Assembly (NCBI GenBank): GCA_032718475.1
Contig: JAUCBJ010008796.1
Coordinates: 33,253 to 97,252, forward strand
Direction of reading: 5' to 3'
DNA: 64,000 nt
Source of the DNA: Nemertoderma westbladi
Taxonomy: Eukaryota > Animalia > Xenacoelomorpha
This document shows, piece by piece, positions 1 to 48,832 of this stretch. A program made the translations under genes and the position numbers. Every line of letters starts with the position of its first letter. The stretch's first letter is position 1. The notes under the pieces were generated by a model. It was not told where the DNA came from and ran no database searches. It saw nothing but the letters and a program-made list of their open reading frames with translations.

Positions 1-30
1 AACTGCTAAAGGTCTTCAAAAGCGCGAACA
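1..30 (+). repeat. 3' end of the 5' LTR
   Basis: Identical to 18829-18858 and ends in ...AACA; the two copies diverge immediately after it. Confidence 0.9.
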
Positions 31-43
31 ATAACAGTTTATA
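31..43 (+). promoter_or_regulatory. Non-tRNA sequence at the PBS position, complementary to an LTR-internal 13-mer (candidate self-priming site)
   Basis: ataacagtttata is the exact reverse complement of tataaactgttat at 18094-18106 in the LTR. No TGG-type tRNA PBS follows the LTR. Confidence 0.6.
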
Positions 44-95
44 ATCTTATTGCAGTAAGCAATAAGGTTGCAAATACCGTAGTGACCGGTAACCT

Positions 96-226
96 GAACC
101 GGTACTTCTGTAGGTCAGTAGGCCCAACTGCCAGAACCGGTACTGCTGTAGGTCCGTAGGTCCAACTGCCAGAACCGGTACTTCTGTAGGTCTGTAGGCC
201 CAACTGTCCTAACCGGTACTGCTGTA
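96..226 (+). repeat. 38-bp tandem repeat (about 3.4 copies) in the retrotransposon leader
   Basis: Unit gaaccggtacttctgtaggtcagtaggcccaactgcca starts at 96, 134, 172 and 210. Confidence 0.9.
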
Positions 227-451
227 TAAGTACATTAGTATTATTCGAATTTGATTAGTGTATACCGGTAGGTCTTAATACTTAATCAGGGACTGCAGCC
301 CTGAATTTTTATTGAGATTCTACTTATTTCTGTCGGTTTTATTTACTAGTAGGCTAATATTGAGCAGAAGGCGTGTGACCCTGCTCAGATTGTTCAGATA
401 ATTGTAGGGTGAGCTGCTGTCTGACTGTTGTTGAGTTTGGAGAGATTACGG

Positions 452-970
452 CGTGTGTAGAGTTTGTCTGATAAAGTGCCGTTAGTAAGTTGGGGCAGCC
501 ATATGCTGTAAGGTCAATCCCCTCTTAAAGAATAAGTCGTACTACCGTGTTAGAACGCATACTAACTAACTGTTTCAGAATCTGCATATACTGTAGTTTA
601 TTTAGGCTTGATCGTAGTCTGCCAGTGTTTTAGCCTGTGTTTGTTTGTGTGGTCTGTTCAGGTACCGTAATAGTTATTACTCAAATATTTTGTAGGCTGG
701 ATTGTTGTCTAGCTATTCTTAGGCCTGAAGGGATTGCTACGTGTGTAGAGTTGTCTGATAAAGTGCCGTTAGTAAGTTGGGGCAGCCATATGCTGTAAGG
801 TCAATCCCCTCTTAAAGAATAAGTCGTACTACCGTGTTAGAACGCATACTAACTAACAGTTTCAGAATCTGCACATACTGTGGTTTGTTTAGGCTTGATA
901 GTAGTCTGCCAGCGTTTGGTTTGTATTTTGTTTGAGTATTCTGTACGGGTAGCGTAATATTTATTATTCA
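452..970 (+). repeat. About 230-bp direct duplication in the leader (452-685 and 740-970)
   Basis: Near-identical blocks cgtgtgtagagtt(t)gtctgataaagtgccgttagtaagttggggcagcc...gtagtctgccag. Confidence 0.9.
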
Positions 971-2282
971 GAGTTTATGCGATTATTCGCAACATTCATG
1001 TCCCCAAGTTTATCCCTACAGTAATTGTGCTTGTTATACATACCGTTATAGTTAAATTAACCCCGGTACTACACGGGCTGCTTGGCGTAGGACAAGACTG
1101 GTGACATTGTGCCCTGGTCACTCCAGCAGATGCCGTGGTTCTTTTAACTGTTCAAGTATATTTAACTACTGATTATTTGTTATACCGGTACTTGTACCTA
1201 ATTTAGGGTTTAGTGTACAGTGCTTTCCGAAGTAATTAGTGTGTAGGCAGTATATTTGTGTTGTAAAGTGGTTGATAGGCACATTCGTTAGCTCTATTAA
1301 CTTCTAGGTAGGAACAATCCGTGATACATAACGTAGTACCTATAGCGATACGGTTATAGGTCGTCAGGCGGTGGTATTTTCCTATCTGGACAGTGCAATA
1401 TATTTACTACTACTTATTATTTAAATACCGTAGTATTCTGTCAGTTGTAATAACCAGAAATCTAACCCTTTGTTAGACTGGTTTGTAGACTTCCTGTAAA
1501 ATTACCCTAAAAAATTCGTACGTAATATTTTGTTGTGTTTAATTAGAGAATTAATCTCACCCGTATCGTAAGTAATTTGTAGTATTAAGTAACTTAGGTA
1601 AATTAGAATTATCAGTTTTAGTGTCAAATAAATAGCACTTCACTGAGAGCGCACAGCTTCCGTGTAGTGACCCCCAGAAATAATAACATTTATTTCAAAT
1701 ATTGACAAAACCCCTTTTAAACGGGTATATATCTATTATAAATCAACTCAAACGATTTATAAATAGTAGGCCTGCCATACAACAACTAGGTCTCAATATC
1801 AGTTGGACTACTGCTTAAATAACGGTAATAAAGTAAGTTAAAGTAACCAAGTAACCTTAAAATATTCAGAAATTCAATTATTCTAAAAATAATTGACATA
1901 CCGGTACTTACCATAGGCTTATCCTATTTATTTCTATAAATTCGAGCTGAAATCATACCGGTATTCTGTAATTAATTCTAGTTCATAATTATACTTATAT
2001 ATACTATAAGTGTCAGCTGTATACCGGTATTCAAGATGGGCCTATTATATATTTATATATATTTGTGCTAAAATTACATACCGGTACTCTGTGACAAATC
2101 TAGTCTGTAATAATACTTATATATATATTATAAGCATACCGGTATTCTAATATATTGTATATATATCACGTTACACTGAGTAACGGTATCGGTAATAAAT
2201 CGCTAGGCTTGCGGTCATACTGAATTACCAGACTTGCTTTAACTGAAACTATAGTAGTAGACATTCAACTGTATAGCTAAAC

Positions 2283-2732
2283 ATGTCTGACACTCAGCAA
2301 AACCTGTCAGACAGTCTGATCGATACAACTATCTGTGACTCAGATAGGAGTGTGGAGCGATTAAGAAAGGAGTTCAGCTCACCTCCTACTGCAAAAAAGG
2401 TCATCCCTCCAGTAGTATCAGACCCTAGGCTAATCCACCATAGGTCCATCATAGGCACTCGGGCACAGGTCAAACGGAACCAAGAGGCAGTTGTCCTATC
2501 GCAGCAGCATCTTGGTCAAGACCCTACTTCCCAGCGACCCGATAGCTCCAGTAGTTCGGATACTGTAGAGCTGACCCCCGAACGCGGAGTGCAGATGGCT
2601 GCTACAGTCTACTCGGACCCCCTTCTCACCCTTCCTGCTGCAGTCTACTCGGACCCCCTTCTCACCCTTCCTGCTGCAGTTAACTATATTCATTGCGGTG
2701 GAGGAACATCAAGCCGACTGGGCGAGAAATAA
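2283..2732 (+). CDS. Short upstream ORF overlapping gag-pol in a different frame; possible frameshifted gag N-terminus or uORF
   Basis: ATG-initiated 149 aa, S/P-rich, with an in-frame 36-bp duplication (about 2605-2679). The gag-pol frame is open from 2575 and lies +1 relative to this ORF. Confidence 0.45.
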   Translation: MSDTQQNLSDSLIDTTICDSDRSVERLRKEFSSPPTAKKVIPPVVSDPRLIHHRSIIGTRAQVKRNQEAVVLSQQHLGQDPTSQRPDSSSSSDTVELTPERGVQMAATVYSDPLLTLPAAVYSDPLLTLPAAVNYIHCGGGTSSRLGEK

Positions 2733-5700
2733 GCGAGCGACCCAAGATAATTATGCGGGATACGCCAGGGAAGAATTAATGTCTATTGTCGAGTCACAAT
2801 GGAACTTTCCCGGACTCGGACTCCCGTTGGACCTGTCCGAGGCTACTTGGGAAGATATACACAGGATGGGAGTGGCAAAAGATACAATGGATCCAGCTGT
2901 TTGGAAGAGGTCGGCATCAGGATATGTGCAGGGATTCTTCGGCTCCTTGGAGCGATTGGAAGAACAACTGTTTCGACAACCTCAAGGACCTCAAGAGCAG
3001 GAAGAGCTGCTATACCAAGTACGTGAAAGAACCCTACGCATACGACTAATCCTCTCAGCCTTTGAGGAAACTTCCAAAAGAAGACAGGACACGTCGCTGC
3101 AGGTTGCTGTCAAAACTTGGTTACATCGGGTAGATCTCCAAGTACAGGAAACGGCCCAGTGGAAATCCCAGCTGGCTGAGAGATCAACCTATGAAGAACA
3201 AACTGATGTCACCCTTTCTCAAGCGGAAAGCGAAGAGACCGCCGAGAAACCGCGAACTAGAGACGCTATCGACATTTATTTGTCCGACTATCAGCGATTC
3301 CTAGGAGACGAAGAGTTGAGTAGACGGCTGTCTGGACTTTCCCCTAATAGTGAAGGAACCAAGCTTGTGTTGGACTCAATCGATGCCGAAATGTTAGCTG
3401 CAAACCAAGCTGAATGTGATGAAAAACTCCGCCTCACTAGAGTCCGAGAAGAACAAGTAAAGAAAGAATGGATAGAGAAAAGAAAGGTGGCAGCAGCAGC
3501 GGCGGCAGAAGCAGAAGCCAAAAGAAAGGCGGCAGAAGCAGAAGCCGAAAGAAAGGCGGCAGAAGCAGAAGCCGAAAGAAAGTCAGCAGAAGCAGAAGCC
3601 GAAGCCGAAAGAAAGGCGGCAGAAGCAGAAGCAGAAAGAAAAGCAGCAGTGGCAGAAGCAGAAAGTAGAGCTTCTGAGGAGACTATCCAATTGGAGTTGA
3701 AAAATCTGCAAGAGACGCAAGACAGTATAAATAAACAGTTTACTGCTAATCAAATGCAGATGATGAGAAAATCTACTCCCAAGCGCCAGGGATACACATC
3801 CTCGGAGGAAGGCGAGACTACCGATCCTGAAGGCGGAGGAAATAGATCTCATCTAAGTAGGCGTAGAAAAACATCTTACCGCCGCAAATTGCCTGATTTG
3901 CCCCCAGCTGTTAGAAGACAGCTAGCTAGCACAGACTTGAGTAGTATAGAACCCACAGCCCAAAGTATTAAGGTCCAAAGACTCTCTACAATAGTTGATG
4001 AGCCTGAGATAATTAGGCCTGTCGTTCCCAAGGTCACTTCTGTGTTAGAGACCCCTGTACTTCCAGAGCTTAACTCTAAATTCCCTTTACATAGTACTAC
4101 ACTGCCTGTACCCGGTGGAACAGTCCAAGAGAATATCCCTGTCCAGATAGCAGAGAGAGAAATCAAAAATTTGTCTCCCGTCGTCCCGCGTCAGCCCGCT
4201 ACTATGTTGGCGACTCCCGCTTCGGCGGTTGAGTGGGTGGAAGAGGGACGGCGGGGGATGAATCTCCTGCTAGGACAAATGCAGGAGACTGTCCACCAAC
4301 TTAAGGGAACAGTGAGAGAAGGCAGAGCAGAGTTGCAAGAAGTGCAGCAAAGTATCGCACTAGAACGCGATAAATTAGTCAATATACAAAGGGGCATACC
4401 AATACCCCCTGTAACATTGTGTCAACCTGTTAGGTCTGAAGTATTACATGCGCAAGGTGTGGAGCCTACACGCATCTATACTGCTAGTGAAGTTGAAACT
4501 CCTATAACAAACCCTATTAAGGGTGATTATAGACCTGTTATTAATGATATTCCCTATAGACCTGATAATGATCCGAGAAATTTATATACCGATAATTCGA
4601 TATTAAATAACACGATGGCCCAAGAAAGCTTTACGCGTCAGATGGCTAGAACAGAAGCCCGCCAAGCGGTCAAAGTGGGAGAGATCGTCAAATTCAATGG
4701 AGATGAGATGAAATGGTTACCTTTCAACGAATATTACAAAGATAGCATACAGAACTCTGTACTATCTAACGGAGAGAAACTTAGATTCCTCATCAAGTGC
4801 TTGGAAGGACCTCCCAAGTTAATGGCGTTAAAGTTTATTGGACATCCAGATGGGTTAAGACAAGTTTGGGATACATTAAACATCAGGTATGGTAACAAGG
4901 ATAACATAGCTAAGTATTTGTATGCAAAATTAGTAGCCCCTCGACACTTCCTTAGTAGCGGGATTATAGAGTTTTCCGATGAGATTCAAGAGATCTGTAG
5001 ACAATTGGACTGGTTAGGTAAGTCTCATGAATATCAGAGTTCCATGGTTATTGGAGCCGTAGTCTCTACTTTACCAAAGGGTGGAGTATGTACACGCTGG
5101 GACAAGAAAGTGTTGTACATGAATGAACAACAACGACGAAGTCCTACCATGGCTGATCTCATGTCTTTCTTAGATGGTGAAGTCAAACTACAACTCATCA
5201 AGCAGTCCAGAGAAAAAACATCGGAAAATAAGGTAAGTGAGAAACCCACTTCTAGGAGAAGGGTAACACCGGTGTGTTACACTGACGACGGCGAAAGCCA
5301 AGCTTCTCAAGAAGAAGACAGCGGGAAAGACACCGAACGTTCTTACTATGTTGACAAAACCTCCAAGGACGTAAGTAAATACAAGGCTCGAACCAACAAT
5401 AGGAGAGAACAGGTTGCTAAGACCCCTCCTCAGTCTCCTAGCAGAATGCGCGGAAGAAAGCCCGAAGAAAGAACGAGAGTGCATCAGACTACCCAAGGTA
5501 AAGTAAGTAACATAAAACCTAACTGTGCGCTGTGCGACGGGACCCACCGTTTGAGTGCGTGTGCGGAATTTCTAAAGAAATCCCTTGTAGACAGACGTAC
5601 AGTTGTGTGGGACAAGCGGTTATGCTATAATTGCCTCAGACCAGGACACCAACGGCGAACCTGTTACTCCGACATAAAGTGTGAAAAGTGTGGTGCGAAA

Positions 5701-8700
5701 CATCACATCTTGTTACATAGTGAGTTCGAACGAGACAAGCAGAGTCAGGTAAGTGAGTCCGAACTACATGTCCAATTCAGTGATGTAAACGACACTGATC
5801 AGGAGTCTGAGATGGAAGGGTTCTATACTGACGAATTCTCCGACGCCAATGAATCCTGTTATCTAATAAATACCGCGGTGTATCGAGCACTTACTTACGA
5901 AAAGGACATCAACGATGAGTTTTCCCCAACTAATTTCGCCAAACAACCATCTTGGAAAGCTCCAGCTTCCAACGTAGGAATCAGAGAATTTCCTGTAGTT
6001 CAGGTAAGAGTTCACGGTCTTAACAAAAGCTACATAGTGAATGCCCTCCTGGACTCCGGCAGCACAGGAACATTCATCGATCAAGAACTAGCCGAAGATA
6101 TCTTTGCTGGACAACCCAAGTTCCGGACTAAATTGAATATGTCAGGAATTATGCAGGTTTGGAAATCTACCCTAACGGCAGATTACTATGTAGGTGTGTT
6201 GTCCACCCCCCAGGATAAGTTAGGAACACAAGGCATAAGGTCAGTAAAAATGGTGGCTATAAAGAACTTTGCTACTACTCAAGCAGACCTTTATAATTGG
6301 GACGAAGATGAGAGCGTCCAACATCTGAAGATACCTCGATTCCAGACAGATTATCCTGGAGTGCAAATACTTATCGGCCAAAACGCGCACGAGGCGCTCG
6401 AAACATTAGAGAAACGGCCTGCTCAACCACAACCACTGCAAACCTATGCGGTAAGAACTAGAGTAGGTTGGTACTTTACTGGCCCTTCCCGTAGAACTCT
6501 CGAAGAGAGAATGCCACACGAACAAATATATCAAGGAAGTGATTGGGAAGTGGAAAGCAGTGAGGTGGACGAACTAACTGAGGGAACACCATACTCCTCA
6601 GATAATGACGACATCTACCAACTCTTCGAAGAAGAGAACACAATTGACCTACTTACAGAGAATCAAACTTGGAAAAACCAAACGAACCTATGTCAACTGA
6701 TTCGCCCAACGGAATCCATTATTTATAATGACGAACTTAATGACGAGGTAGAGCGCTACAACGCTAGAACTCGGGACGAACTCGCCGTACGATTCTTTAC
6801 CCAAGAATTAGTAGAACCCAATTCATACGACAAAGCCCTGTCAATAGAAGAAGAAAGAGCCAAGCAAATCCAGGAAACAACCACACGTTTTTTAAAAGAT
6901 CAAGGTAGATATGAAATCGGACTACCCTTCCGAAAACGTGAACCCAGATTTATAAATAACAGACCCTTGGCTGAGAAAAGAATCAATCAATTACATCGAC
7001 GTCTTACGGCAAACACTTCAGCTAAGGAAATGTACCAAACTCAGTTGAAGAAATTTATCACAAAGGGATATGCGGAGCGAGTACCGGAAGGAACTCCAAT
7101 AACTGAAAGAACTTATTATCTAACACATCATTACGTTCCCAAGCCCGGTAAACCCCATGAAGTACGAGTCGTATTCGATGGCTCTGCTCTATATATGGGC
7201 CAATCCCTTAATTCCGAGTTGTTACCAGGACCCAATTTACTACAATCTTTGTTGGGAATACTTTTGAGATTAAGACAATATTCCATCGCGTTCGCTTCTG
7301 ATATCGAAGGAATGTTCTTACAAGTCAAGGCGCTGGAGAGAGATAGAGACATCCTGAGATTTCTGTGGTGGCCTGAAGGAGACCTCAACCAGAAACCGGT
7401 GGAGTACTGGATGACCATCCAGGCTTTTGGGATCATATCTAGCCCTTCCAATGCCTGCTCCGTGGTGCGAACCACTGCGAATGACAACCGAGACTCCTTC
7501 TCCAAAGAAGTGATAGACAACATAAAACGCAATATATACATGGACGACAATTTAAGGTCCCTTCCATCAGTAGAAGAAGCCATAGCTGTCGCGAAAGGAA
7601 CGGTAGAGTGTTTGAAAAGAGGTGGATTTCGACTGACGAAATTCACTAGTAACTCCCGTGAGTTTCTGGAAGCCATACCGGTAGAGGATCGCGGAGCGAA
7701 AGACCTAGACTTAATAAAAGACGATCTTCCTGAAACCAAGACGCTAGGCTTGAAGTGGGACACGGAAAGAGATATCCTGTTTTTTCAGCTAAAACAGCGA
7801 GATAATCCAGTTCGGACCAAACGGATTTGTTTAAGTATCCTGAGCACTTATTTCGACCCATTGGGATTTATTAGCCCAGTTATATTGATTGCTCGGAGTT
7901 TAGTACAACAAATGTGGCTTGAAAACCACTCGTGGGACGATCCCCTCAAGGGAGAATTATTAAAGAAATGGATGAAATGGGAGGACTCGCTACCTGCTAT
8001 CGAGAACTTTATAATTTCCCGTTCATATTTTGGTCATGTTCTCCCTACGTATTCCTATCAACTCCATGTATTTGGAGATGCCAGCGATATGGGAATCGGT
8101 ATAGTAGCATACCTGCGAGTCGAAACTCCGGATGGAATCAAAGTTGCCTTGGTTACCTCTAAGGCATTGATTAACAACAAGCTTAAGGTTCCTCGGGCGG
8201 AGTTAAAAGCAGCCTTATACGCTACAGCTATCGGCCGGAATGTAACGGAACAGATCGATTATCCACTGGAGAAAACTGTTTATTGGACCGACGCTTTACT
8301 TGTGTTGGAATATATAACCAATGAAGTCTGTCAGTTCAGCGTCTTTGTTACTAACAGAGTGGCCATTATTCTTAGTCGCACAACGATAGATCAATGGAGA
8401 CATTGCCCTGGTACGATTAACCCAGCTGACATCGCCTCCAGAGGAGCAACTCAACAGGAACTGATAGATACCCCTGACTGGTTGTGTGGACCCGACTTCC
8501 TGAGCAAGGAAGAGGATGAATGGCCTCCTCACCTTACTACGGCTGAGATTAGACAAGCCAAGGGAGCGGAGAAAGTCAAACCCAAAATTAGAACAAGTAA
8601 ATCGAAATTATTTAAACCGACAATCGATCTATCTGTATTACATACTGCCGAAAACGATACTTCGGATCCACAATCCCTCGCCACAAACAAGTCTGTTGTG

Positions 8701-10359
8701 GAAATTAGAGACAGAGATTGGAAATCTGAGATACCAGATGTCTCGCAAGGAATCTCACCCCTGCTGCAGAGAGCACTGCATCATTACAGTTCCTGGAATC
8801 GTCTCTGTAAAGCCATCACATACTTAAAGAGATGTTTTCACCATCATTACTCCAGGAAGCAGACCACTAGTGATCCTGCTCCAGTAACATCTGCGCAAGT
8901 TTATGTTATTAAAGATCTACCGAAGTACAAGATATCAGACCGGTTTCTAAAGGAGAAGATCAGTTACCAGGAGCATGAAGAAACTAATAAGCAGCTACTG
9001 AGACTCCTGCAATGCTATGAGGATTCCGATAGGTACTTTCTGTTGTTGAGAAATCCGCAGATGCGCTTAAGGGATCGCTTCTCTAGCACAATGATAGATG
9101 GGTTAATACGTGTTGGAGGAAGGCTTACAAACGCCCCATTATCCTTTGATACTAAATTCCCTATACTCATTAGTAATCTTGAAGTACAAATCAAGATGAT
9201 TGTAGATGTTCACAGTAAACTGTATCATGCTGGTAGAGAACGAGTTCTTAGCGAAATTCGAACCCGCTATTATTTTCATAAACCGCGTAGAGCTCTGAAT
9301 CAAGTTCTTAGGAACTGCATACCTTGTAGGAAAGTATTCAGTAGGCCTTTAACACAGCGAGAGGCAGAATTACCTATGGAACGAGTAAGCTTTTATGAAC
9401 CACCCTTTACTAATACTGGTGTGGATTTATTTGGCCCTATTGAAGTGTATCGTGCTAGAACTATAATCAAGAGATGGTGTGTAATCTTTGTCTGCATGAC
9501 TTGTAGAGCTATCCATCTCGATATGGTGAACGATCTATCTACTAACAGCTTCGTCTTATGTTTACGACGACAGATCGCTCGTTTCGGCACTAGCAATACG
9601 ATGAGATCCGATAAGGGAACGAACTTCATTGGTGCCAACAACGAAATTCAGGCTTACGTAAAGGACTGGAATCAAAGACAGGTGGACGACCAGCTACGGA
9701 TAACGGCGTCTAGCTGGACCTTTAACGCCGCCGACGCCCCTTGGTGGGGAGGAAGTTGGGAGAGATTAATTCGAAGTGTCAAGACCACATTTCACTTTAT
9801 AGTGCCGTGCCGCGCATATCTCACCGACGAACTTCTACGGACGTTAATGGAGGAAATCGCTGCCTATCTTAACGAGAGACCGCTTATGCCAGTCTCATCG
9901 AGTCCCGACTCCCTGGAAGCGCTAACACCCGCGCACTTCCTACTTAAAAAACCTGTAGCCATGCTCCCACAATCCGAGATTGCCGATGGGGATGAATACT
10001 GTCGTCGAACTTGGCAGCTTATGCAGTTGCTATCCCGTCGTTTCGCTGACCATTTTGAGAAACATTATCTGCCCACGCTACAACTTCGAACTAAGTGGTT
10101 TGCGCAGCAGGAAAATGTCAGCGCCGGAGACATGGTCCTTATTGTAGATCCGGACCTTCCACGTAGACGGTGGCAGATCGGTCGTATCATCGAGACGCAC
10201 ATCTCGGAGGATGGTCTAGTGCGCTCAGTAGAACTCGTCGTAATGCGGCGTAATTTCAAGAAACCCGGTACCCAAGGAGGTGAGGTCTCTATAGGGGTGC
10301 CGGGAACAGGCGGCGGTGGACTCGTGAGGGTCTGGGGGCACGTTAAATCTTTCTTATAG
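2698..10359 (+). CDS. Bel/Pao Gag-Pol polyprotein (coiled coil, DUF1759-like gag, zinc knuckles, aspartic protease, RT, RNase H, integrase); the final 27 or so codons come from an insertion
   Basis: EAERKAA repeats; KFNGDEMKW gag motif (~4690); CALCDGTHRLSAC, CYNCLRPGHQRRTC and CEKCGAKHHILLH (5524-5718); ALLDSGS (~6043); YMDD (7537); FGDAS (8071); NPADIASRG; H-x4-H...CIPC; GVDLFGP, SDKGTNF and WERLI integrase core. The track starts at GTG; the first ATG is at 2779. Confidence 0.96.
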   Translation: MEEHQADWARNKRATQDNYAGYAREELMSIVESQWNFPGLGLPLDLSEATWEDIHRMGVAKDTMDPAVWKRSASGYVQGFFGSLERLEEQLFRQPQGPQEQEELLYQVRERTLRIRLILSAFEETSKRRQDTSLQVAVKTWLHRVDLQVQETAQWKSQLAERSTYEEQTDVTLSQAESEETAEKPRTRDAIDIYLSDYQRFLGDEELSRRLSGLSPNSEGTKLVLDSIDAEMLAANQAECDEKLRLTRVREEQVKKEWIEKRKVAAAAAAEAEAKRKAAEAEAERKAAEAEAERKSAEAEAEAERKAAEAEAERKAAVAEAESRASEETIQLELKNLQETQDSINKQFTANQMQMMRKSTPKRQGYTSSEEGETTDPEGGGNRSHLSRRRKTSYRRKLPDLPPAVRRQLASTDLSSIEPTAQSIKVQRLSTIVDEPEIIRPVVPKVTSVLETPVLPELNSKFPLHSTTLPVPGGTVQENIPVQIAEREIKNLSPVVPRQPATMLATPASAVEWVEEGRRGMNLLLGQMQETVHQLKGTVREGRAELQEVQQSIALERDKLVNIQRGIPIPPVTLCQPVRSEVLHAQGVEPTRIYTASEVETPITNPIKGDYRPVINDIPYRPDNDPRNLYTDNSILNNTMAQESFTRQMARTEARQAVKVGEIVKFNGDEMKWLPFNEYYKDSIQNSVLSNGEKLRFLIKCLEGPPKLMALKFIGHPDGLRQVWDTLNIRYGNKDNIAKYLYAKLVAPRHFLSSGIIEFSDEIQEICRQLDWLGKSHEYQSSMVIGAVVSTLPKGGVCTRWDKKVLYMNEQQRRSPTMADLMSFLDGEVKLQLIKQSREKTSENKVSEKPTSRRRVTPVCYTDDGESQASQEEDSGKDTERSYYVDKTSKDVSKYKARTNNRREQVAKTPPQSPSRMRGRKPEERTRVHQTTQGKVSNIKPNCALCDGTHRLSACAEFLKKSLVDRRTVVWDKRLCYNCLRPGHQRRTCYSDIKCEKCGAKHHILLHSEFERDKQSQVSESELHVQFSDVNDTDQESEMEGFYTDEFSDANESCYLINTAVYRALTYEKDINDEFSPTNFAKQPSWKAPASNVGIREFPVVQVRVHGLNKSYIVNALLDSGSTGTFIDQELAEDIFAGQPKFRTKLNMSGIMQVWKSTLTADYYVGVLSTPQDKLGTQGIRSVKMVAIKNFATTQADLYNWDEDESVQHLKIPRFQTDYPGVQILIGQNAHEALETLEKRPAQPQPLQTYAVRTRVGWYFTGPSRRTLEERMPHEQIYQGSDWEVESSEVDELTEGTPYSSDNDDIYQLFEEENTIDLLTENQTWKNQTNLCQLIRPTESIIYNDELNDEVERYNARTRDELAVRFFTQELVEPNSYDKALSIEEERAKQIQETTTRFLKDQGRYEIGLPFRKREPRFINNRPLAEKRINQLHRRLTANTSAKEMYQTQLKKFITKGYAERVPEGTPITERTYYLTHHYVPKPGKPHEVRVVFDGSALYMGQSLNSELLPGPNLLQSLLGILLRLRQYSIAFASDIEGMFLQVKALERDRDILRFLWWPEGDLNQKPVEYWMTIQAFGIISSPSNACSVVRTTANDNRDSFSKEVIDNIKRNIYMDDNLRSLPSVEEAIAVAKGTVECLKRGGFRLTKFTSNSREFLEAIPVEDRGAKDLDLIKDDLPETKTLGLKWDTERDILFFQLKQRDNPVRTKRICLSILSTYFDPLGFISPVILIARSLVQQMWLENHSWDDPLKGELLKKWMKWEDSLPAIENFIISRSYFGHVLPTYSYQLHVFGDASDMGIGIVAYLRVETPDGIKVALVTSKALINNKLKVPRAELKAALYATAIGRNVTEQIDYPLEKTVYWTDALLVLEYITNEVCQFSVFVTNRVAIILSRTTIDQWRHCPGTINPADIASRGATQQELIDTPDWLCGPDFLSKEEDEWPPHLTTAEIRQAKGAEKVKPKIRTSKSKLFKPTIDLSVLHTAENDTSDPQSLATNKSVVEIRDRDWKSEIPDVSQGISPLLQRALHHYSSWNRLCKAITYLKRCFHHHYSRKQTTSDPAPVTSAQVYVIKDLPKYKISDRFLKEKISYQEHEETNKQLLRLLQCYEDSDRYFLLLRNPQMRLRDRFSSTMIDGLIRVGGRLTNAPLSFDTKFPILISNLEVQIKMIVDVHSKLYHAGRERVLSEIRTRYYFHKPRRALNQVLRNCIPCRKVFSRPLTQREAELPMERVSFYEPPFTNTGVDLFGPIEVYRARTIIKRWCVIFVCMTCRAIHLDMVNDLSTNSFVLCLRRQIARFGTSNTMRSDKGTNFIGANNEIQAYVKDWNQRQVDDQLRITASSWTFNAADAPWWGGSWERLIRSVKTTFHFIVPCRAYLTDELLRTLMEEIAAYLNERPLMPVSSSPDSLEALTPAHFLLKKPVAMLPQSEIADGDEYCRRTWQLMQLLSRRFADHFEKHYLPTLQLRTKWFAQQENVSAGDMVLIVDPDLPRRRWQIGRIIETHISEDGLVRSVELVVMRRNFKKPGTQGGEVSIGVPGTGGGGLVRVWGHVKSFL

Positions 10360-11536
10360 TGCAAGGGAGTTACTGAAGGCCCTCGTGTCTTGCGAACCAT
10401 GAATTGACATGGTGCCGTGGTACCGTCTTGTCGGCCTGTTGCCGTACTGCCAGTCCTGTACACAGTAGGGGTGGTGACTTAGTGTGATCTGTGGTTTATG
10501 TGGTTTATTTGGTAGGTCTATGTTTGGTATGTATGAGTTGACCAGACTCTGTACTGTCTCTGATTGGTTGCCAAAACGTGTTTTTTCCCAGGGTAGCACT
10601 ATTGGAATGGAGGTGTTGCATCGGAATGGACAGGTTCTGATGATTCTGTTGGTACTACTATTGGAATGGAGGTGGCACCCGGAATATCGGCTGCAAGGAG
10701 GGGTTGGTGTTGTAGTGTGGTCCGAGTGAATGATACTCTGGAATCTGTGGTTTGTGTGTGTACGTGGTATACGTGAGTGTATGTATGGCCACTGCGAGTG
10801 GGTATGGGAACCCTTACCGGTTGGTTCAGTCGCCGCTGGTTATTAGTAGGACAATATTTTACTGCGCCCCAGCATACTTTGTGCACACAAAGTTATTTTA
10901 CCCTGTCGGTAAAATAAGGTACTCTAGACTCTTTATCAGTCTATACAATTTTGTCCCCTCTGATTTTGTCACCGATTTTGTCCTCCCCGATTATGTCCTC
11001 TGTGTGTGCGTGGTATGCGTCAGATTGGTGTTTACCTTTTGTGTACTTGATTATCGAACATCTGTTGAGTACACGTGTACAGTGACTGGTAAGTGGTTAC
11101 TTGTTCCTAGCTTTCGAGCTAGTCAGTATTGTTTGCGGAACCGACTTCCCCTCAATACTGCCGGCGAGGCGGGTGAAAACGTGTCAAAATTCCAATGTGG
11201 GTAGCGCAAGCCCGCTTGGGACAAGACCGTCGGTTTGGCTCAAGGGCGACCTTGATGCTCGATCGCTATCGACTGGTCCACCCGCCGGTTGACTCTCTGA
11301 GTTGGCTCAATGTACAGTCAGGCCACAGCAAGTTGACAGTAGCCGACCATCTGGCTACACCGACGAGTTGTGCCGGTGTGATCGGGGGATTGAAAAGTGA
11401 ACCCGGGAAGCATCGGGCTACCCTCCGGCCCGGTCTGATAAAAACATCAGTCGGACTGGCCCCAAGGGTGGTGGGACAGCGTCCGCCTCATGGGTGCGCC
11501 TCGGAGTCATCAGAGAGGAGCCCAGAAGGACGCAAG
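10277..11536. mobile_element. 1260-bp insertion in the integrase C-terminus; possibly a terminal-repeat remnant of a tyrosine-recombinase (Ngaro/PAT-like) retroelement
   Basis: Pol similarity stops after KKPGTQ and resumes in the same frame at 11537. Both junctions read ac(c/g)caag. The GC-rich 3' part has many hairpins. The family assignment is from recall only. Confidence 0.6.
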
Positions 11537-11691
11537 CGATAATCTTTGAGACGCAACAACTCAATCGCCCAGTTGGTCGTTTATGTTTACTGGAAAGAGA
11601 CAGAGAACTCTCTGGAAACTATGGAAGACAAGACACTCTTCCCTCGACCACCTCCCTAATTCCTCAAACATCTAGGGACTCCCAAACGTGA
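11537..11691 (+). CDS. Displaced true C-terminus of the Bel/Pao integrase
   Basis: Reads AIIFETQQLNRPVGRLCLLE..., matching the typical Bel/Pao end motif RPxxKLxxL, in the same frame as gag-pol. Confidence 0.85.
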
Positions 11692-12239
11692 TACGTCTGG
11701 AGTGGGTGTATGACTATGTTATTTATCTATTTTATTACATTTTATATGCGAACTTTATTATGTACTTTATTATAATCGTTTTTATTCAATTTTATTTAGT
11801 GGAATGTTATTTTAGGGATTATTTGGTAGATTAGTGCAATATATTAGTGTTTATTACGTACATAATCACTTATAATATATATTTAGTGCGACGGCGGGAA
11901 ATAATTATTTTTTCTCTTCCCTTACTGTCCGTATCATATTATAAATACGTGACTACAGTAAGATGAAATGTCCGTACTTCTTAAAGTACAATAAAGCCAC
12001 TACTATATTTAAGTATTATTGGTAGGCAGAGTATTAGGAATGCAAAGTTCAGATCCTCGTGTCTCGGCTAAACCAAGCTCTGGGTAGACCTTGGAAACGA
12101 CTTGCCTCTTCACACTGACATTGCTTCGTGCGATATTGCTCTTCTACCTTATAACAAATAATACATATAGTAGCGTGATGTCCCTCTAACAGTAGCGTAA
12201 ATCGCAAATAAATCTGTTAAACTTTTTGACCATCTGTAA

Positions 12240-12510
12240 TTCTAGTCGATTAAGATATCGTGGCACCCACCGATATACTTGAAAGACAAATCCTAGAATC
12301 AGTGGTTAACGTCCCCAGACAAGTTCTGGAATAAATTGGTGCCCATCCTAAATATTAATTTAATATTTATTAAAATCTGTAAAATCCCGATCCTTTAAAA
12401 TTTTTAGTCAATTAAGATATCGCGCAGTATTTACCGATATTCTTAGAAGGACTATTTTATAGAATTAAGGATCCTAAGTCCCCAGATATGCTCTGGAATA
12501 AAATTTGTGT
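12240..12510 (+). repeat. Diverged ~110-bp direct repeat pair in the pol-ORF2 spacer
   Basis: The pattern tagtc.attaagatatcg...accgatat...gtccccaga....tctggaataaa occurs at ~12243-12335 and ~12405-12502. Confidence 0.8.
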
Positions 12511-13129
12511 CAATTTAACATCAAATAATAAAATTCACGGGAATAAATTTAAATTCATATTCAAATGAATTTCATAAATTGTCATTTTGCGCAATTTATA
12601 ACATTCCCAAAATTCCAGTAATTAATAGATCATGGGAGCGGAGATTCATATTGAGTGTACTAGAGTGCGAGAATCTCCAACATATAGTCAATAGCCGATA
12701 AAATTTATAAAATCATGCATAAAGAGGATATTGACAATTAAAGAATTACTATTAAATAACATCCCAGATCTGTATGCATGAGAATTCCCCTAATTCTACC
12801 GCTAGTTTTCCATAATGTCACCATGGCAACACCCACGCTAGAATTAGAAGCAAGTTAAAGGAACAATAAAAAGCTTACCCCATTGCGTAGCATAAGAGTA
12901 TACATAACGCACTATTAGTATCCAAGGATACATAGTAATAACGTGACATTCTGGAAGACACTGACTAACGGACAAATGGCATGCATGTGTGCAGTAAGCA
13001 ATGATTGTATGGAATTTGTGCGTTTATAGGTGAATGTTACTACTAAAGTGTGTTTACAGTAGCTAATCGCAATTGTAAAGTAGCCCTAACTCTACCGAGA
13101 TAACCTCAAGTGGATTCAAGCCTTGGGGA

Positions 13130-13272
13130 CGGACAGTGGTGGGACTTGTGCCGGTTATCGTTGTCGTGCTGTTGCTACATGTTGGCATAAACACTGCGAC
13201 AACGGTACATCGGCGCTGAGAAACCCACTGTCCGGGGGCAAAGCCTAGTAGGCAGCGACGCCCGCTTGCCTA
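13130..13272 (+). promoter_or_regulatory. Long RNA hairpin plus a small hairpin immediately upstream of ORF2
   Basis: Nested stems cggacagtgg/ccactgtccg, gtgccggt/atcggcgc and tatcgttgtcgt/gcgacaacggta, with G-U pairs favouring the + strand. A second hairpin taggcagcg/cgcttgccta lies at 13249-13272. Confidence 0.7.
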
Positions 13273-13315
13273 AAATATTAACTCATATTGATATTAATAA
13301 ACTCAGATAACAGAT

Positions 13316-16300
13316 ATGACGGAATTGATAGAAGATGACCTTGGTATCAGGGAGCGATATACTCTACCTTTACAAGCGTTTGTGGATAGCTTGATACGCG
13401 GTGAAGCCGATCCGACTATTACGGAGGACGATGGTCGTTATATCGAACCGCCGATGTCCCAGGAACAACTTACGCGTGAATTGGACTATAGAAAATTCAC
13501 CGCTCGCTATACGAATCGTAATGGTACGTATATGGACTTCTTAACTACCGGCCATCCTACCGATTTAAATGATACGGAAGATGTAGACACCGAAAGGGAA
13601 ATGGTTTTATTTAAATATCATGCCCAGCGGAATCGTAATGATAAACCGAGAATAGAACACGAGAACTCTATTCGCAACCTACTCGACAGAGAAAACGTTG
13701 AAGAACCCGATAAGCGCCTCAACTTCAACGACTACTTGGAATTTTTGAGAGAAACCTATCTCAATATTGCCAGTCAACAGAACCTAGAGACTCGATATCC
13801 TCAAGGTATACATCACGATCCCATAGTAGAACTCAAACGACTCTATTTCACCATGATGTATCTTACCGCAGATCGTCCACTGCCTGTTGTCCCGGACAGC
13901 TTTGAACAAATGGAAGAGTATTGCAAAACTGGAGAACGATCACCAGCGTTTCCTCTGCAGGACGTACGTCTTTGGTATTATTGTGACTCATGTCCTAGAC
14001 CTAACCAGCAAACGGAAAGACATAAACATCCGCGGAGACGTTGTGCTAAACACAGTTTTACGCGTTATACTTACGGGAGTTTCGAGCGAAACCTGTTCGA
14101 CGTATCACCTACGATCGCCCGTCTAAAACGATCGCTAAATAAACCTATGATCAGAGTTCCGGAATACTCGGTCAGGCCTCCCCATTTCCCCGTGAGACCT
14201 CAAACTCTTGATCCTAACAGTATCACTGATCCTCCCGAGTTATACTCACTGTTCAAAGATTTGGTGTTACCCGAGCAGTTAATCGGTGGTGTTCCAGCGG
14301 TAGGTTCGTTAGATATTCGACCATCCTATTTAACCGGATTGGGACGCGGGCATCTAACATCGCCATTTAATCCTTACAATCGACCAGGATTAACTCCGAT
14401 ACAACCTGCCACGGAAATCGAGGAGAGTGTCATCAGAAACGCTTTAGACGCCATCCGACAGAAAATCGGAAAGGGAACCCAGGATTTTCTAGAGAAACGT
14501 AAATTACAGCAGCAGGTCCAATCGGTGAAAGAGTTAGCCTTGCCGCAGTTTGATAGAGAAATCCAAAACCTCGAAGAGGACATCGAGCTTGGACATACGT
14601 ATTCTCTACAGGAGTTTCTAGAAGAACGCTTACAGAAACAAGCGGAGGAAAATCAACTAGAGGAGAAACATACGGAAATGGATGAGAGAGAGGAAGCCGC
14701 TTTAGCCCAACCCGAAGCTCAGATACTCATAACCGATCTCTACTCTAAAACCGTCCGTCATCCCTCGATGGTTCCGCATTTCGGAGACAAACTTTTCGCA
14801 AAGATACAACCTCAACCGGTTGATATCGGCATAAGGTCGCAAAATCTTATCGCTGACGCTCCTATGTTACAGCGTCCGCCAATCGAGGCCGCTCGAGTTG
14901 ACGGTATACTCGTTGAACCTCCGGACAATCGAGCGGATCTTGTCCGTCGTATGGTACACGATGTCAACATACGCGCTAGACCTTTACAGAACTCTTTTTA
15001 TGGAATTAAAGATCACCCTTATTACGTTAATCTGACTCAATATTATATGGTAAAACCAGAAGATCCGACGCATAATTTAAAGTTTCTACCACTAATAAAT
15101 CCTCTGGACATTGTCGAACTCGAACAATTGCAAAAACATCTGGATCAGTTAGTAAAGGTAAACTCATTTCGAAAACCATATAACGTTTCTCGAATAGAGA
15201 AGGATACAGAACCTCCTTATAATCTCGATGGATTTATTAAAACTCGATTAGTCCATTGGAATCTAGACGTAATATTCGAGGAGGAGAAAATACAAAGATA
15301 TGGAAATGTGGAGACGTATACCACTCGATACATGAAGTATAGTGATCTCCCTGACGCTAATCAATGCGCCACCTTGTGGCATCCAGTAGGGATGACCCTC
15401 GAGAACGCCACCAAAGAGTGGAATGAAACTCTTAATATCATTGAGATGTATGGCGTTGTTACTTACGATAACGAAGGTAGCATTCCAATCGGAGAATTAG
15501 GAACTACGCGCATGATACACATACGCGGATTAGCTGGTTCCACTCACGTGTTTACGCGAGCGTGTTCCGACGTGGTCGATTATTCCTTTGAAACTCTCAC
15601 CGAAACGCAAAAGAATCTCCGACATGGACAATTCGAACTCGCGCAGCGTTACGTCATTGACACCGAACGCAAACCGGCCATGGGTATCGATGGATCGATG
15701 TTACCCCAGCCCGTTCTCGAGATGTTATTCAACGAAAGAATCATTAAAATCGGCTCAGCTGTTTACGGGGATCTCCAAAACGACTTTCGGAATATGGAAA
15801 ATATCCCCTATCCTTTCGTGGATACTCAGCTGATAGCTCCTTGGGCCGAAGGCCGAGGTTTCTTTCGCACCATGTATGCTAATGCGTCTAGCAACGTTAC
15901 AAAGGTGCAACGAACTTCCATCGGACATCTTGCCTTTCAGGAATACGGATGTAATTTCAAGGTCGGAAATCCCATCAACTATCAACAAGTATACGGAGAC
16001 CATTATTCTCGATTATACTTTGACGGACCGTTGACCGCACCTGGCGCCGTGTATAGCTTCATGAGTGTTCCACTCCGTCCCTCCTTAGCTATCTACACGA
16101 TCTTCGAAAACACCGCACTTTCCGGTTGGCTAGCCGATGTGTGCAGTCGTACTATACGCGCCCATCCATTAATCCTTGGGACCAAACTCGCTAAGCTAGA
16201 TGAACATAATAAATTCATCCGCTTTGAATGTTTCCGACGGTTTTTAACCCCGTTTCGCAACGTGGATAGCCAATTCAAAGACCGCGCTTTGACCAAGCTC

Positions 16301-17569
16301 AGCTTAAGAGACTCGGCTGCGGAGAAGTTAGATAGCGCTGGATTTGCTATTTTCAAAGACGTTTGTATAATAAACCTGCACTCCTCGGTTATCCAAAGAC
16401 CTCGGATCCCCACAGGTTATTCTGTCGTGGAAATTCAGACGGTAGGTCCACTTGAGGAGACGGCCATGCCTACCTCAACTATACAAGGGGAAGACGAACC
16501 CATATGTTTAGAATCTGAAGAGATTCAGCCCCCCACGTCTCGGAGTAGCGATAGCGACTACATATTGGAATGGTATCAAGGTCCACAGTGTCTTACTGCG
16601 TATGATTATCGCCATGCCAATTATGTTTCTCGACAACGTTGTCGGCTGTGCGCATCGAGAGACCATATTACGTCTATGGACACCAACGATCTCTGTTCCT
16701 ATTTCCACGAGCAACCGTCGATGGAAATCTATTGTGCATATTGTCGGCTTAATAATTTGCATATTTTTGCTGTCTGCCCCCAATTTATGACTCAATGCCA
16801 TCATTGTCAATTAAAAGGACACGCCAGCTTTGATTGTCCATTTAATCATGATTTAGAGAGCGTAGATGAAATGATTGTACTACGTTATATCAGAGCTTGG
16901 GAAGCGAACGCTGATTTACATTGTGATTCACGCCATCGCTATTACCCTGGACGCGCTTACGAAGGAGTTTATGCGTTCCATCCTTATTTGTTTGCCTCCG
17001 TCGAGCAGAAATCACGCCTATCAAGTTATGAACTACTGAAGCGCGTTGGAGAATGTATTTCAACCAAATATGTACGCAAATTTCTCAGGAGCATTAATCC
17101 GAGTGACATCAATTCTTACAACTTAATAAACTTTATCCGTCAAGATCCGGACTATGGAGACTTATTTGTCAACTCATACCCCGAGTTACAGGAAGTGTAT
17201 CGACGGCCTTACGAGTATCGAGCCCGCGAACGCGAGTTGGAAAGAACCATTAAACCAAGGAAGTTTCTAACTACCTATGGTCCACCCACGGCCCTCGTTC
17301 AGACCACTCGTAAAGGACCCGTAAGAGCGGCTGTCTTGAAACGAGCTCTCAAAGCCGTTAGACCCCTCTCCCCGGACGTTGATGTCAATCGACCCGGTAC
17401 TTCGACCGGCGGATATACCGATCGTAATCCCATACCTTCTGATGCAATCATATTGCACCCTTCACCCAGGAGTTATAGCCCTCCTTGTAAAGTGGCTCGC
17501 CCCAAAGAGAAAAGGACTCTTGCTAGCTTTAAAAAACTGCGTAAACGCCGTCCGCGCAAGAAAGACTAA
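13316..17569 (+). CDS. Retrotransposon accessory ORF2: DEDDy-like 3'-5' exonuclease domain, three CCHC-type zinc knuckles, N-terminal Cys/His motif, basic C-terminal tail
   Basis: Uninterrupted 1417 aa inside the LTRs. ExoI VVTYDNEG (D718/E720); LPQPVLEMLFNERIIKIGSAVYGDL (ExoII D819); FVDTQ; SIGHLA; PLRPSLAIYTIFE (Y927/E931, ExoIII-like). Knuckles CRLCASRDH..C, CAYCRLNNLHIFAVC and CHHCQLKGHASFDC; ends KKLRKRRPRKKD. Confidence 0.85.
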   Translation: MTELIEDDLGIRERYTLPLQAFVDSLIRGEADPTITEDDGRYIEPPMSQEQLTRELDYRKFTARYTNRNGTYMDFLTTGHPTDLNDTEDVDTEREMVLFKYHAQRNRNDKPRIEHENSIRNLLDRENVEEPDKRLNFNDYLEFLRETYLNIASQQNLETRYPQGIHHDPIVELKRLYFTMMYLTADRPLPVVPDSFEQMEEYCKTGERSPAFPLQDVRLWYYCDSCPRPNQQTERHKHPRRRCAKHSFTRYTYGSFERNLFDVSPTIARLKRSLNKPMIRVPEYSVRPPHFPVRPQTLDPNSITDPPELYSLFKDLVLPEQLIGGVPAVGSLDIRPSYLTGLGRGHLTSPFNPYNRPGLTPIQPATEIEESVIRNALDAIRQKIGKGTQDFLEKRKLQQQVQSVKELALPQFDREIQNLEEDIELGHTYSLQEFLEERLQKQAEENQLEEKHTEMDEREEAALAQPEAQILITDLYSKTVRHPSMVPHFGDKLFAKIQPQPVDIGIRSQNLIADAPMLQRPPIEAARVDGILVEPPDNRADLVRRMVHDVNIRARPLQNSFYGIKDHPYYVNLTQYYMVKPEDPTHNLKFLPLINPLDIVELEQLQKHLDQLVKVNSFRKPYNVSRIEKDTEPPYNLDGFIKTRLVHWNLDVIFEEEKIQRYGNVETYTTRYMKYSDLPDANQCATLWHPVGMTLENATKEWNETLNIIEMYGVVTYDNEGSIPIGELGTTRMIHIRGLAGSTHVFTRACSDVVDYSFETLTETQKNLRHGQFELAQRYVIDTERKPAMGIDGSMLPQPVLEMLFNERIIKIGSAVYGDLQNDFRNMENIPYPFVDTQLIAPWAEGRGFFRTMYANASSNVTKVQRTSIGHLAFQEYGCNFKVGNPINYQQVYGDHYSRLYFDGPLTAPGAVYSFMSVPLRPSLAIYTIFENTALSGWLADVCSRTIRAHPLILGTKLAKLDEHNKFIRFECFRRFLTPFRNVDSQFKDRALTKLSLRDSAAEKLDSAGFAIFKDVCIINLHSSVIQRPRIPTGYSVVEIQTVGPLEETAMPTSTIQGEDEPICLESEEIQPPTSRSSDSDYILEWYQGPQCLTAYDYRHANYVSRQRCRLCASRDHITSMDTNDLCSYFHEQPSMEIYCAYCRLNNLHIFAVCPQFMTQCHHCQLKGHASFDCPFNHDLESVDEMIVLRYIRAWEANADLHCDSRHRYYPGRAYEGVYAFHPYLFASVEQKSRLSSYELLKRVGECISTKYVRKFLRSINPSDINSYNLINFIRQDPDYGDLFVNSYPELQEVYRRPYEYRARERELERTIKPRKFLTTYGPPTALVQTTRKGPVRAAVLKRALKAVRPLSPDVDVNRPGTSTGGYTDRNPIPSDAIILHPSPRSYSPPCKVARPKEKRTLASFKKLRKRRPRKKD

Positions 17570-17639
17570 CTGTTTAGAGTATTTTTATATTTTAGAAACT
17601 GTGATTTTGTATATTTTATAGACTTAAATCCCATTTTCT

Positions 17640-17647
17640 GGGAGCGG
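17640..17647 (+). promoter_or_regulatory. Short polypurine tract
   Basis: gggagcgg directly precedes the TGT start of the 3' LTR. Confidence 0.6.
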
Positions 17648-18858
17648 TGTAAAAGCTTTTGTGGGATAACTGATTCGTTTGCCTTGCTGGCCAGTTCCCC
17701 CCCGGTCGCTAGAATACTCTAAAAGGGATCTATAGGTAAAATAGTGCAAGCTACCAGCTTATTGGCTGATGTGCTGTACTGAGGTATCTGGGTTCCGTTT
17801 AATCGGCCAACCAGCTTAGAGAGGTTGCCTTAGCCCTGCTGTCCGTATCGGCCAATAGAATTTGAGTGGGCGTTGATTTCGACCTATCCCAGAGCTACTG
17901 AACTGAATTTTCCTATCTCACTGCTCATCCTCTGTGTTGGACGGGAGCTTCGGGGAATAAGGGTAGTTGGTATCCTCGTATAGGGATTCTAGTCTTATGA
18001 TTCTTCATATGATTCTGTTGTTGTGTTCCCATTTTTCGCCATAACACCGGCTTTTGGGAAGAACTCTAGTAAAACTGCTTAAATTATCGAAGGTATAAAC
18101 TGTTATCCTATCAACCTACCATCCTACCTACTAATCAATCAATCAACCTGATTCTGTTGCTAATCATATTGTTTGTACTGTTATTTACCGTCAGTTATTA
18201 ATTGTATCTATTTGTTGATGGAAATATTGCTCTTTGGAGAATACGGATAAATCACCCAAATTTCCCAATTTTCTTGATACACTACAGGTTAGAGAGACAG
18301 GCTATATATAACAATTGCGATTTATATTAATGTGGTGTGTATTGAATCTAATGTTATTTAGCAGACCCTACATGAGTCAATTGCTGCTCTCTTTATGTGT
18401 GATCAAATTTACTGACGGTCGGCAGAATAGTGTGCATGATTGTAATTGATAACAAAGTATTTCCTAAAGAATACGCTTTATACTTTAATCATAAGCAGTA
18501 TCGTTGCGTTTAGTATAAGTCCTAGTCCTGTTTAAATAGATAGAGCGCCACGTCCTAAAGGAACTGTTAATATTTCCCGAAAGCCAATAATATCTGTCAG
18601 AAATTAATTAATAACGATCAATCGAATAATACAGTAAGTTTACACTGCAACCTTACACTGCAATAATAAAATTTAAGCAGCCGAATTCAGCCTCCCGGGT
18701 GTAGATCCATCGGGTGAATGATCGCGCATGGGCTGTCTTCGGGTAATGTTTTGTTTAATAGCATAAAATATTGTCGTATGCTAAAGGTGTTTTAATTAAC
18801 TAGAAGACATATAAATTTTGGCAGGTTGAACTGCTAAAGGTCTTCAAAAGCGCGAACA
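17648..18858 (+). repeat. 3' LTR (1211 bp)
   Basis: Termini TGTaaaaGCTTTTG ... CAAAAGCgcgaACA form an imperfect inverted repeat. The end matches bases 1-30. CCAAT-like boxes at ~17761 and ~17852; AATAAA at 18665. Confidence 0.85.
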
Positions 18859-19330
18859 TTCTCCTCGACCCTTTTCATATTACCGTGTTTAGTACAGACC
18901 CTGATACATTCAGTACAAGATTGTTCTTTGATACAAATTCAGATACTGCCTCTAAGGTTGAAAACAATATAATATAAATTTACCTATTCTGACTATTGAA
19001 CCTGGTGGTGCTTCGATTAATTCCTTTTCTATATCATTCACACCCTTCTTAGTGTATGTTATCACTTTTGTAATAACACATTTGTGGACAATCTTGCAAA
19101 TGTCATTAAAATCAGGGGTTGGGGATAGTGGGTTAGATCCAATAACACGATCTAGTACACGTTTTATTGTACCGCTAATCCCATCGGCTGGACCATTGCC
19201 ATGTCCAGCTTCCATAAAAACCCACTGCATCTCGATTCTAGTTGTTTTACAATATTCTATAAAAAGTTTGAAAATTGAACGGTTCCTATACTGGGCTGAT
19301 GGGGAATCTGTCACTATAATAATGCTAGTG
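18859..19330 (-). pseudogene. DNA transposase fragment (Sola-like DDD motif), directly abutting the 3' LTR
   Basis: TDSPSAQYRN...FMEAGHGNGPADGISGTIKR motif, followed by a SCTECIRVCTKH Cys/His tail running up to the LTR end. The superfamily assignment is tentative. Confidence 0.6.
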
Positions 19331-48774: not shown

Positions 48775-48832
48775 ATTACATGTTTTATTGGACTTTCGCC
48801 CAACAACTAGTTGATCTACTTACACCTGTAAA

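Follow-up and report, generated by a model that had tools for sequence, protein, structure and literature searches.

A perfect complement of its own LTR at the primer-binding position of a BEL/Pao retrotransposon from Nemertoderma westbladi: a candidate case of self-priming

What primes reverse transcription in a BEL/Pao retrotransposon whose primer-binding site (PBS) position matches its own long terminal repeat (LTR) in place of a tRNA? The initial annotation of the locus analyzed here held that BEL/Pao elements are generally described as tRNA-primed. This agrees with the ICTV description of the Belpaoviridae, which gives an 18-nt PBS for tRNA-Arg or tRNA-Gly, tRNA priming and genomes of 4.2-10 kb, and calls replication in the family poorly understood (PMC8742986). 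In the accessible text of the sources compared below, self-priming is demonstrated for Tf1 and is a prediction for its group and for some plant lineages. The analyzed stretch, hereafter the window, comprises 64,000 nt of the forward strand of Nemertoderma westbladi contig JAUCBJ010008796.1 (positions 33,253 to 97,252); coordinates of the features under discussion are collected in Table 1.

Table 1. Positions within the window of the element's features and of the predicted RNA structures.
Feature	Position	Strand	Remarks
5' LTR, last 30 nt	1..30	+	identical to 18829-18858; remainder upstream of window
PBS position without TGG	31..43	+	complement of LTR 18094-18106; core shared with sister copies likely 32-43
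Predicted leader hairpin	44..68	+	10 bp, -10.0 kcal/mol; alternative to leader-LTR duplex
Leader arms 47-56 and 63-72	47..72	+	exact complements of LTR 18657-18666 and 18646-18655
Short ORF opened by first ATG	2283..2732	+	overlaps long ORF in another frame
BEL/Pao gag-pol frame, 2594 aa	2575..10359	+	DUF1759, weak protease match, Peptidase_A17, integrase zinc finger, DUF5641
Extra ORF, 1422 aa	13301..17569	+	weak leads: 3'-5' exonuclease-like domain, CCHC knuckles
Polypurine tract, 8 nt, purine-rich	17640..17647	+	abuts 3' LTR; similar tracts in relatives
3' LTR, 1211 bp, TGT...ACA	17648..18858	+	
Candidate self-primer as read in 3' LTR	18094..18106	+	starts with TATA-like hexamer; overlaps weak donor at 18093
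Best TATA-like box of LTR	18303..18311	+	209 nt downstream of primer start; rival promoter
LTR partner of leader arms	18646..18666	+	two predicted 10-bp helices, -24.6 kcal/mol
Only AATAAA of LTR	18665..18670	+	558 nt downstream of primer
Predicted stem-loop	18803..18845	+	-16.6 kcal/mol, z -3.5; ends 13 nt before LTR end

By its polyprotein domains, the element is a BEL/Pao retrotransposon. Pfam matches on the 2594-aa frame include Peptidase_A17 (E 4e-36), DUF5641 (3e-19) and DUF1759 (1e-11), and the chromodomain, part of the Tf1/sushi polyprotein criterion, is absent from the Pfam results. Among the best 120 of 1,293 homologues of the RT-RH region, all carry PF05380, most share 38-44% identity with the element (the outliers are one at 31% and one at 36% over 43% of the region), the best of those spanning the full region are at about 40-44%, and the named sources are mostly cnidarians, echinoderms and molluscs. 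A tree of 97 RT-RH rows, built without named BEL/Pao references (Sinbad/Sparrow/Surcouf, Suzu, Tas, BEL, Pao), sets the element on a long branch (1.23), at no more than 45% identity and with no supported placement. As in the Belpaoviridae, a Gag-PR-RT-RH-IN order with DUF1759, Peptidase_A17 and DUF5641 is combined with a TGT...ACA LTR and a polypurine tract, and the LTR length agrees with the family range of 0.2-1.2 kb, the 5' LTR being represented by 30 nt in the window. Unlike the Belpaoviridae of the ICTV description, the element has no TGG site, carries an extra ORF without an envelope match and reaches about 20 kb, a figure that assumes a full-length 5' LTR and that doubles the upper bound of the family's 4.2-10 kb size range.

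The short ORF at the start of the coding region is probably the beginning of Gag. Its frame overlaps the gag-pol frame across a tandem repeat, so that this copy is broken, frameshifting or spliced there. The 1422-aa ORF returned no Pfam match and no envelope match. Its features match a 3'-5' exonuclease cluster in an atlas (0.92; PF01612 on 50% of members), and a homologue (P0124; E 1e-6, 32% identity) was found, with exonuclease and CCHC matches below threshold. By eye, its motifs resemble those of WRN/EXD-type nucleases, except that the third acidic one seems to be altered; a single-sequence structure model of this ORF was unusable (pLDDT 30). The leader (31-2282) is unusually long at 2.25 kb, non-coding, and contains a 288-bp duplication (402-683/690-970) and short tandem repeats, and a 2.9-kb spacer (10360-13300) separates the gag-pol ORF from the 1422-aa ORF. 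Acceptor-like AGs lie upstream of both the 2283 ATG and the ATG of the 1422-aa ORF. A canonical GTAAGT donor is located in the LTR at 18634, 31 nt upstream of its only AATAAA and beside the leader-pairing segment; spliced mRNAs might use it, or it might suppress the 5' poly(A) site.

The initial annotation had reported a 13-nt complement of the element's own LTR at the PBS position, with no TGG PBS nearby, and both observations were reproduced. The reverse complement of 31-43 stands, letter for letter, at 18094-18106 (LTR offset 447-459), and with up to one mismatch allowed the whole window has no match besides these two. The 13-mer was read in the 3' LTR copy; the 5' LTR copy lies upstream of the window. 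The first TGG past the 5' LTR is at 438, with none in 31-437. Mature tRNAs end in CCA and hence cannot pair by their 3' ends with the PBS position. The element thus lacks the 18-nt PBS for a tRNA 3' end that the ICTV describes, which questions that description and not the BEL/Pao placement, because the family is placed by Pol. Searches for tRNA genes in the window and for Rfam families in 1-19000 returned nothing, and hence no candidate for a tRNA-like primer encoded by the element.

A complement of at least 10 nt at the PBS position is one criterion for Tf1-type priming, and the element presents 13 nt in this copy and 12 nt in the sister rows described below. In LTRs simulated with a first-order model, a complement of at least 13 nt at offset 0 arose in 4 of 20,000 cases and one of at least 12 nt at offsets 0-5 in 31 of 20,000; 12 of 62,636 other 12-mers in the window are complementary to the LTR. 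The AU-rich duplex has a predicted energy of -12.3 (13 bp) or -11.2 (12 bp) kcal/mol, and the primer segment is the best LTR partner of the PBS (-13.2, against -9.8 for the next segment in the same scan). The predicted probability of this helix is unstable: it swings between about 1 and about 0, depending on how much leader is included, as it also does in one relative (L077). A spliced primer for the window element (donor 18102, acceptor 18287) would pair over 12 nt but with a poor donor; 5 of 150 nulls do as well, and no such primer remains when donors must be canonical. It was rejected, which leaves the element in a contiguous class. Searches for the 25-nt LTR-end pattern in metagenome contigs, and for relatives of the element in viral contigs, returned no match.

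The element belongs to a multi-copy family in its host. Contigs from four runs cover all 30 bins, with 137,261 (X1) and 36,602 (X3) aligned and many at 90-99% identity; the depth figure itself is no copy number. At a 3% share, sister contigs on 18030-18170 number 156, 70, 2 and 1 per run. In three runs and with the same share, 18030-18105 shows one substitution row (18061), four indel rows (18051-18071) and no row within 18094-18105; soft-clipping of variants next to the divergent 3' side biases this empty substitution table. In X1 the summed depth is 89,385 at 18100-18104 and 474 at 18110-18114, a dip that is not evidence alone; the loose ends of the alignments are. These form 17 rows in all, of which 13 were displayed, and 8 of the displayed rows cross the primer site. 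All eight keep 18100-18105, and most diverge right after; in six of them 18106 is C instead of T and is followed by differing sequence, while the other two are uninformative. Conservation among sister copies therefore ends at the predicted 3' end of the primer, and the shared complement is likely 12 nt (18094-18105 with 32-43): the 13-nt complement originally reported is exact in this copy, and its thirteenth pair (A31 with T18106) is not kept in the sister rows. Three sister rows, from one subfamily, have one A fewer in 18097-18099, a change that, if uncompensated, would leave a bulged duplex. Run X5, possibly RNA, gave one contig on 18030-18170 and no joint, and the 40 of 4,039 variant rows listed, an uninformative sample, include none at the primer or PBS site.

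Sister contigs also differ from this copy in structure. Their joints skip 10265-11539, 6611-8387 and 8574-11554; this copy has about 1.27 kb that is absent from many sister copies, and internally deleted derivatives without RT-RH or integrase sequence occur in several runs.

An alignment of 35 Pol sequences led to 73 plus 26 loci of distant BEL/Pao relatives, 34 of the 99 with repeats flanking pol. In 14 of these 34 the repeat set the LTR end and they were used for analysis (the end is the contig end in L018 and was set by hand in L046); nine fixed the LTR start only, and 11, in which the repeat did not mark the LTR termini, were excluded. A perfect own-LTR complement of at least 10 nt is present at the PBS position in 11 of the 14. 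In nine (L011, L015, L018, L046, L047, L051, L082, L084 and L085; 10-12 nt) the PBS position finds its complement only where two exons of the element's own LTR would be joined across a canonical GT-AG intron, and in two the complement is contiguous (L020, 10 nt; L077, 11 nt). Among the remaining three, L075 scored 8 nt, with 10 of 11 across a junction by eye, and L021 and L088, which have TGG sites, show a complement of at most 4 nt. As controls, 206 swapped pairs and 300 shifted windows each yielded a single complement of at least 10 nt. Since L011/L047 and L084/L085 are sister pairs, the 11 relatives represent about nine independent families (L032 also belongs to the L011 family). Where the LTR start alone was fixed, a spliced match was found in six of the nine loci, among 160 candidate ends.

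Complementarity in sister families and compensatory changes within them had been put forward as checks on self-priming, and the relatives provide both. The complement recurs in the 11 loci with different letters, and at the two bases where the PBS of L084 departs from that of L085, the paired bases at the exon ends have changed too. In these sequences, distant BEL/Pao elements commonly have a self-complement, and those with a tRNA site have none. The relatives' complements start 0-4 nt from the LTR end, which makes the 1-nt offset of the 12-mer in the window element ordinary; their LTRs extend 44-216 nt past the primer, versus 752 nt in the window element. Because the branch of the window element is long and unplaced, the relatives support it by analogy and not by demonstrated descent. 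In L084 and L085 an AATAAA lies directly 3' of the primer. The 26 loci L074-L099 come from bacterial genome records, mostly metagenome-assembled, and are probably animal DNA in those assemblies.

The reading that we favor, with a probability of roughly 0.6, is that minus-strand DNA synthesis would be primed by a 12-nt piece of the RNA copied from the element's own 5' LTR, in the manner of Tf1. Self-priming in a BEL/Pao element, as the initial annotation had proposed, draws its support from the own-LTR complements of the relatives, the matched changes between L084 and L085, and the TGG-bearing elements without a complement. Transcription would start within the 5' LTR, no further downstream than offset 447, and the 12-mer would anneal to 32-43, one base from the LTR end. 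Leader 47-72 would then pair with the 5' LTR copy of 18646-18666, stabilizing an unusually long loop of about 750 nt and partly covering the poly(A) signal of the 5' LTR. A cut at the 3' end of the duplex, presumably by the element's RNase H as in Tf1, would release a 3'-OH, and the resulting strong-stop DNA of about 750 nt would jump to the 3' LTR. In this scheme the R region would end after 18670, placing the poly(A) site of the 3' LTR downstream of the primer, as strand transfer requires. The length of LTR remaining after the primer may be the reason for a clamp of this kind.

The leader-LTR duplex was searched for because Tf1 requires flanking duplexes adjacent to its PBS. Two ordered 10-mers such as those of the leader arms appeared in 1 of 20,000 simulations, a post hoc statistic, and the energy null gave 1 of 300; 1 of 19 other leader windows pairs with the LTR as strongly, and the two helices are partly linked via a tandem repeat in the LTR. 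What is new here is that the leader can, in the predicted fold, form these two helices beside the only AATAAA of the LTR, covering its first two bases. We infer from the likeness to Tf1 that this duplex is an analogue of the Tf1 flanking duplex. Across the relatives, a second duplex is significant in 1 of 12 (L015 alone).

Pairing of the leader with the LTR excludes the hairpin adjoining the PBS, which had been taken to compete with the primer. The hairpin is indeed predicted, at -11.9 kcal/mol when extended to 42-70, and the fold of 20-120 has a z of -2.5. Its core lies outside the PBS, which it enters with a 2-base extension (42-43) worth 1.9 kcal/mol, and the better reading is that it alternates with the leader-LTR duplex and hardly competes with the primer. 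On the opposite side of the PBS, the stem-loop near the LTR end is a possible U5-IR analogue; the U5 end has no significant long-range partner (31 of 60 and 8 of 60 nulls), and shuffled versions of the LTR sequence downstream of the primer fold equally well (z -0.24). Neither a hairpin after the PBS nor a terminal U5 stem is general among the relatives.

The comparison with Tf1 can be made feature by feature. Its primer is an 11-nt LTR segment released by an RNase H cut between bases 11 and 12 (accessible text of PMC7175516), and in its "pretzel" structure PBS-adjacent sequence pairs with the LTR downstream of the primer, the flanking duplexes being required (accessible text of PMC10085805). 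The window element shares with Tf1 a PBS-adjacent sequence that is predicted to pair with the LTR downstream of the primer. It differs in that the stem upstream of the PBS forms a local hairpin, which stops 13 nt short of the LTR end, and not a PBS-adjacent duplex, in that its primer is a candidate whose place at the RNA 5' end is putative, and in that its primer and PBS lie about 750 nt apart. In nine of the 14 relatives, unlike in Tf1, a primer would form only after splicing.

The start site is the weak step of the proposed mechanism. TATA-like boxes in the LTR occur at 0, +209/+211 and +716 relative to the primer, with none upstream, and these positions argue mildly against a primer at the 5' end of the transcript. 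An upstream TATA-like box is present in 5 of 11 relatives, at -31 to -235, and in L015 it lies 31 nt upstream of the primer, so that the start would coincide with the primer; three of the 11 have TATA-like boxes downstream as well or only. The start site matters for self-priming, given that Tf2 transcripts starting downstream cannot support reverse transcription (accessible text of PMC5341516).

The box positions speak for an alternative geometry of self-priming, in which the 18094 hexamer or the 18303 box is the promoter and the 12-mer lies in U3, present only at the 3' end of the RNA; it would then pair with the PBS over a long range or on the partner RNA of a dimer, or else a separate LTR transcript would supply it and priming would be in trans. 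Such a promoter could be what the conserved block upstream of 18105 represents. Against this, sister rows differ in the stretch past 18105, which would be the spacer between TATA and start, and the hexamer has a shorter A run in a variant. A cut in U3 would moreover sever R from the template, and the junction-type primers of the relatives fit the 5' copy better, because splicing of the 3' copy would be expected to delete the intron from progeny LTRs. We consider this geometry unlikely.

The pairing might instead have a structural or regulatory role, in packaging or in hiding a promoter element or the donor at 18093, with a tRNA fragment or another host RNA acting as primer. The 13-mer does overlap a donor-like GT, as the initial annotation had pointed out in suggesting donor masking, and half-tRNA primers are described for some copia lineages in the accessible text of PMC6317226. 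Donor masking fares poorly on inspection: AAG|GTATAA agrees with 6 of 9 consensus positions, a mediocre score that ties it with nine other GTs of the LTR and leaves it below four better ones, and two sister rows lose its -1 G and keep the 12-mer. The complement in the relatives is also always 0-4 nt from the LTR end, has unrelated letters and is absent from the elements that have a TGG site, and a structural role without self-priming seems improbable to us. A chance match, to which AT-rich sequence and the many features examined per window would lend themselves, or a relic of an inverted-repeat insertion with 13-bp ends at LTR offset 447 and just past the LTR, is very improbable given the anchored simulations, a family conservation that stops at the primer 3' end, a signature in 11 of 14 relatives versus 2 of 506 controls and the absence of the 13-mer after the 3' LTR.

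A short LTR complement at the PBS and the absence of a tRNA site are likewise found in Tf1 and Tf2 of S. pombe, Tj1, Tosmo1-3, Tcry1 and the Tf1/sushi group. These are Ty3/gypsy chromoviruses, whereas the window element has a BEL/Pao polyprotein: the mechanism would be alike, and the element is not a member of the group. Self-priming has also been predicted for plant Tcn1 (gypsy) and TAR/Houba/Osr-1 (copia) from a complement of at least 10 nt lying 0-5 nt past the 5' LTR (accessible text of PMC6317226), a computational criterion under which the window element presents 12-13 nt; these elements belong to other superfamilies and hosts, and their cases are predictions, not biochemistry. The comparison also draws on the accessible parts of PMC4600332, PMC3601003, PMC5443660, PMC2864245, PMC7472051 and PMC8220671. 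By term look-up, PBS and tRNA are absent from the accessible text of four BEL/Pao surveys (PMC554778, PMC3118150, PMC8556966, PMC6238403). No title or abstract describing self-priming in BEL/Pao was found in a search that left subscription papers and Repbase mostly uncovered, so that a prior description is possible.

If self-priming by the 5' LTR copy is correct, it would extend this mechanism to a third LTR superfamily and to animals outside the sushi group, and would explain BEL/Pao elements without a findable tRNA site. It would also free BEL/Pao elements from tRNA supply and from silencing by tRNA fragments. A broader reading, which we offer as speculative and rather doubtful, is that much of BEL/Pao dispenses with tRNA priming, with spliced self-primers in most lineages and, in the window element, an intron-free primer, a two-state switch in the leader and an exonuclease-like ORF. 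In one state of the switch the hairpin would form; in the other, a duplex would mask the 5' poly(A) signal and hold the primer on the PBS, so that priming would be tied to full-length transcription. The exonuclease-like product might trim or protect the primer end.

Elsewhere in the window, an intact non-LTR retrotransposon ORF of 1309 aa (48815-52744) combines an N-terminal Ulp1 (Peptidase_C48) domain with an RT. Long palindromes and inverted repeats at 53276-54385, 45431-45631, 63610-63807 and 20079-20673 are probably non-autonomous DNA transposons.
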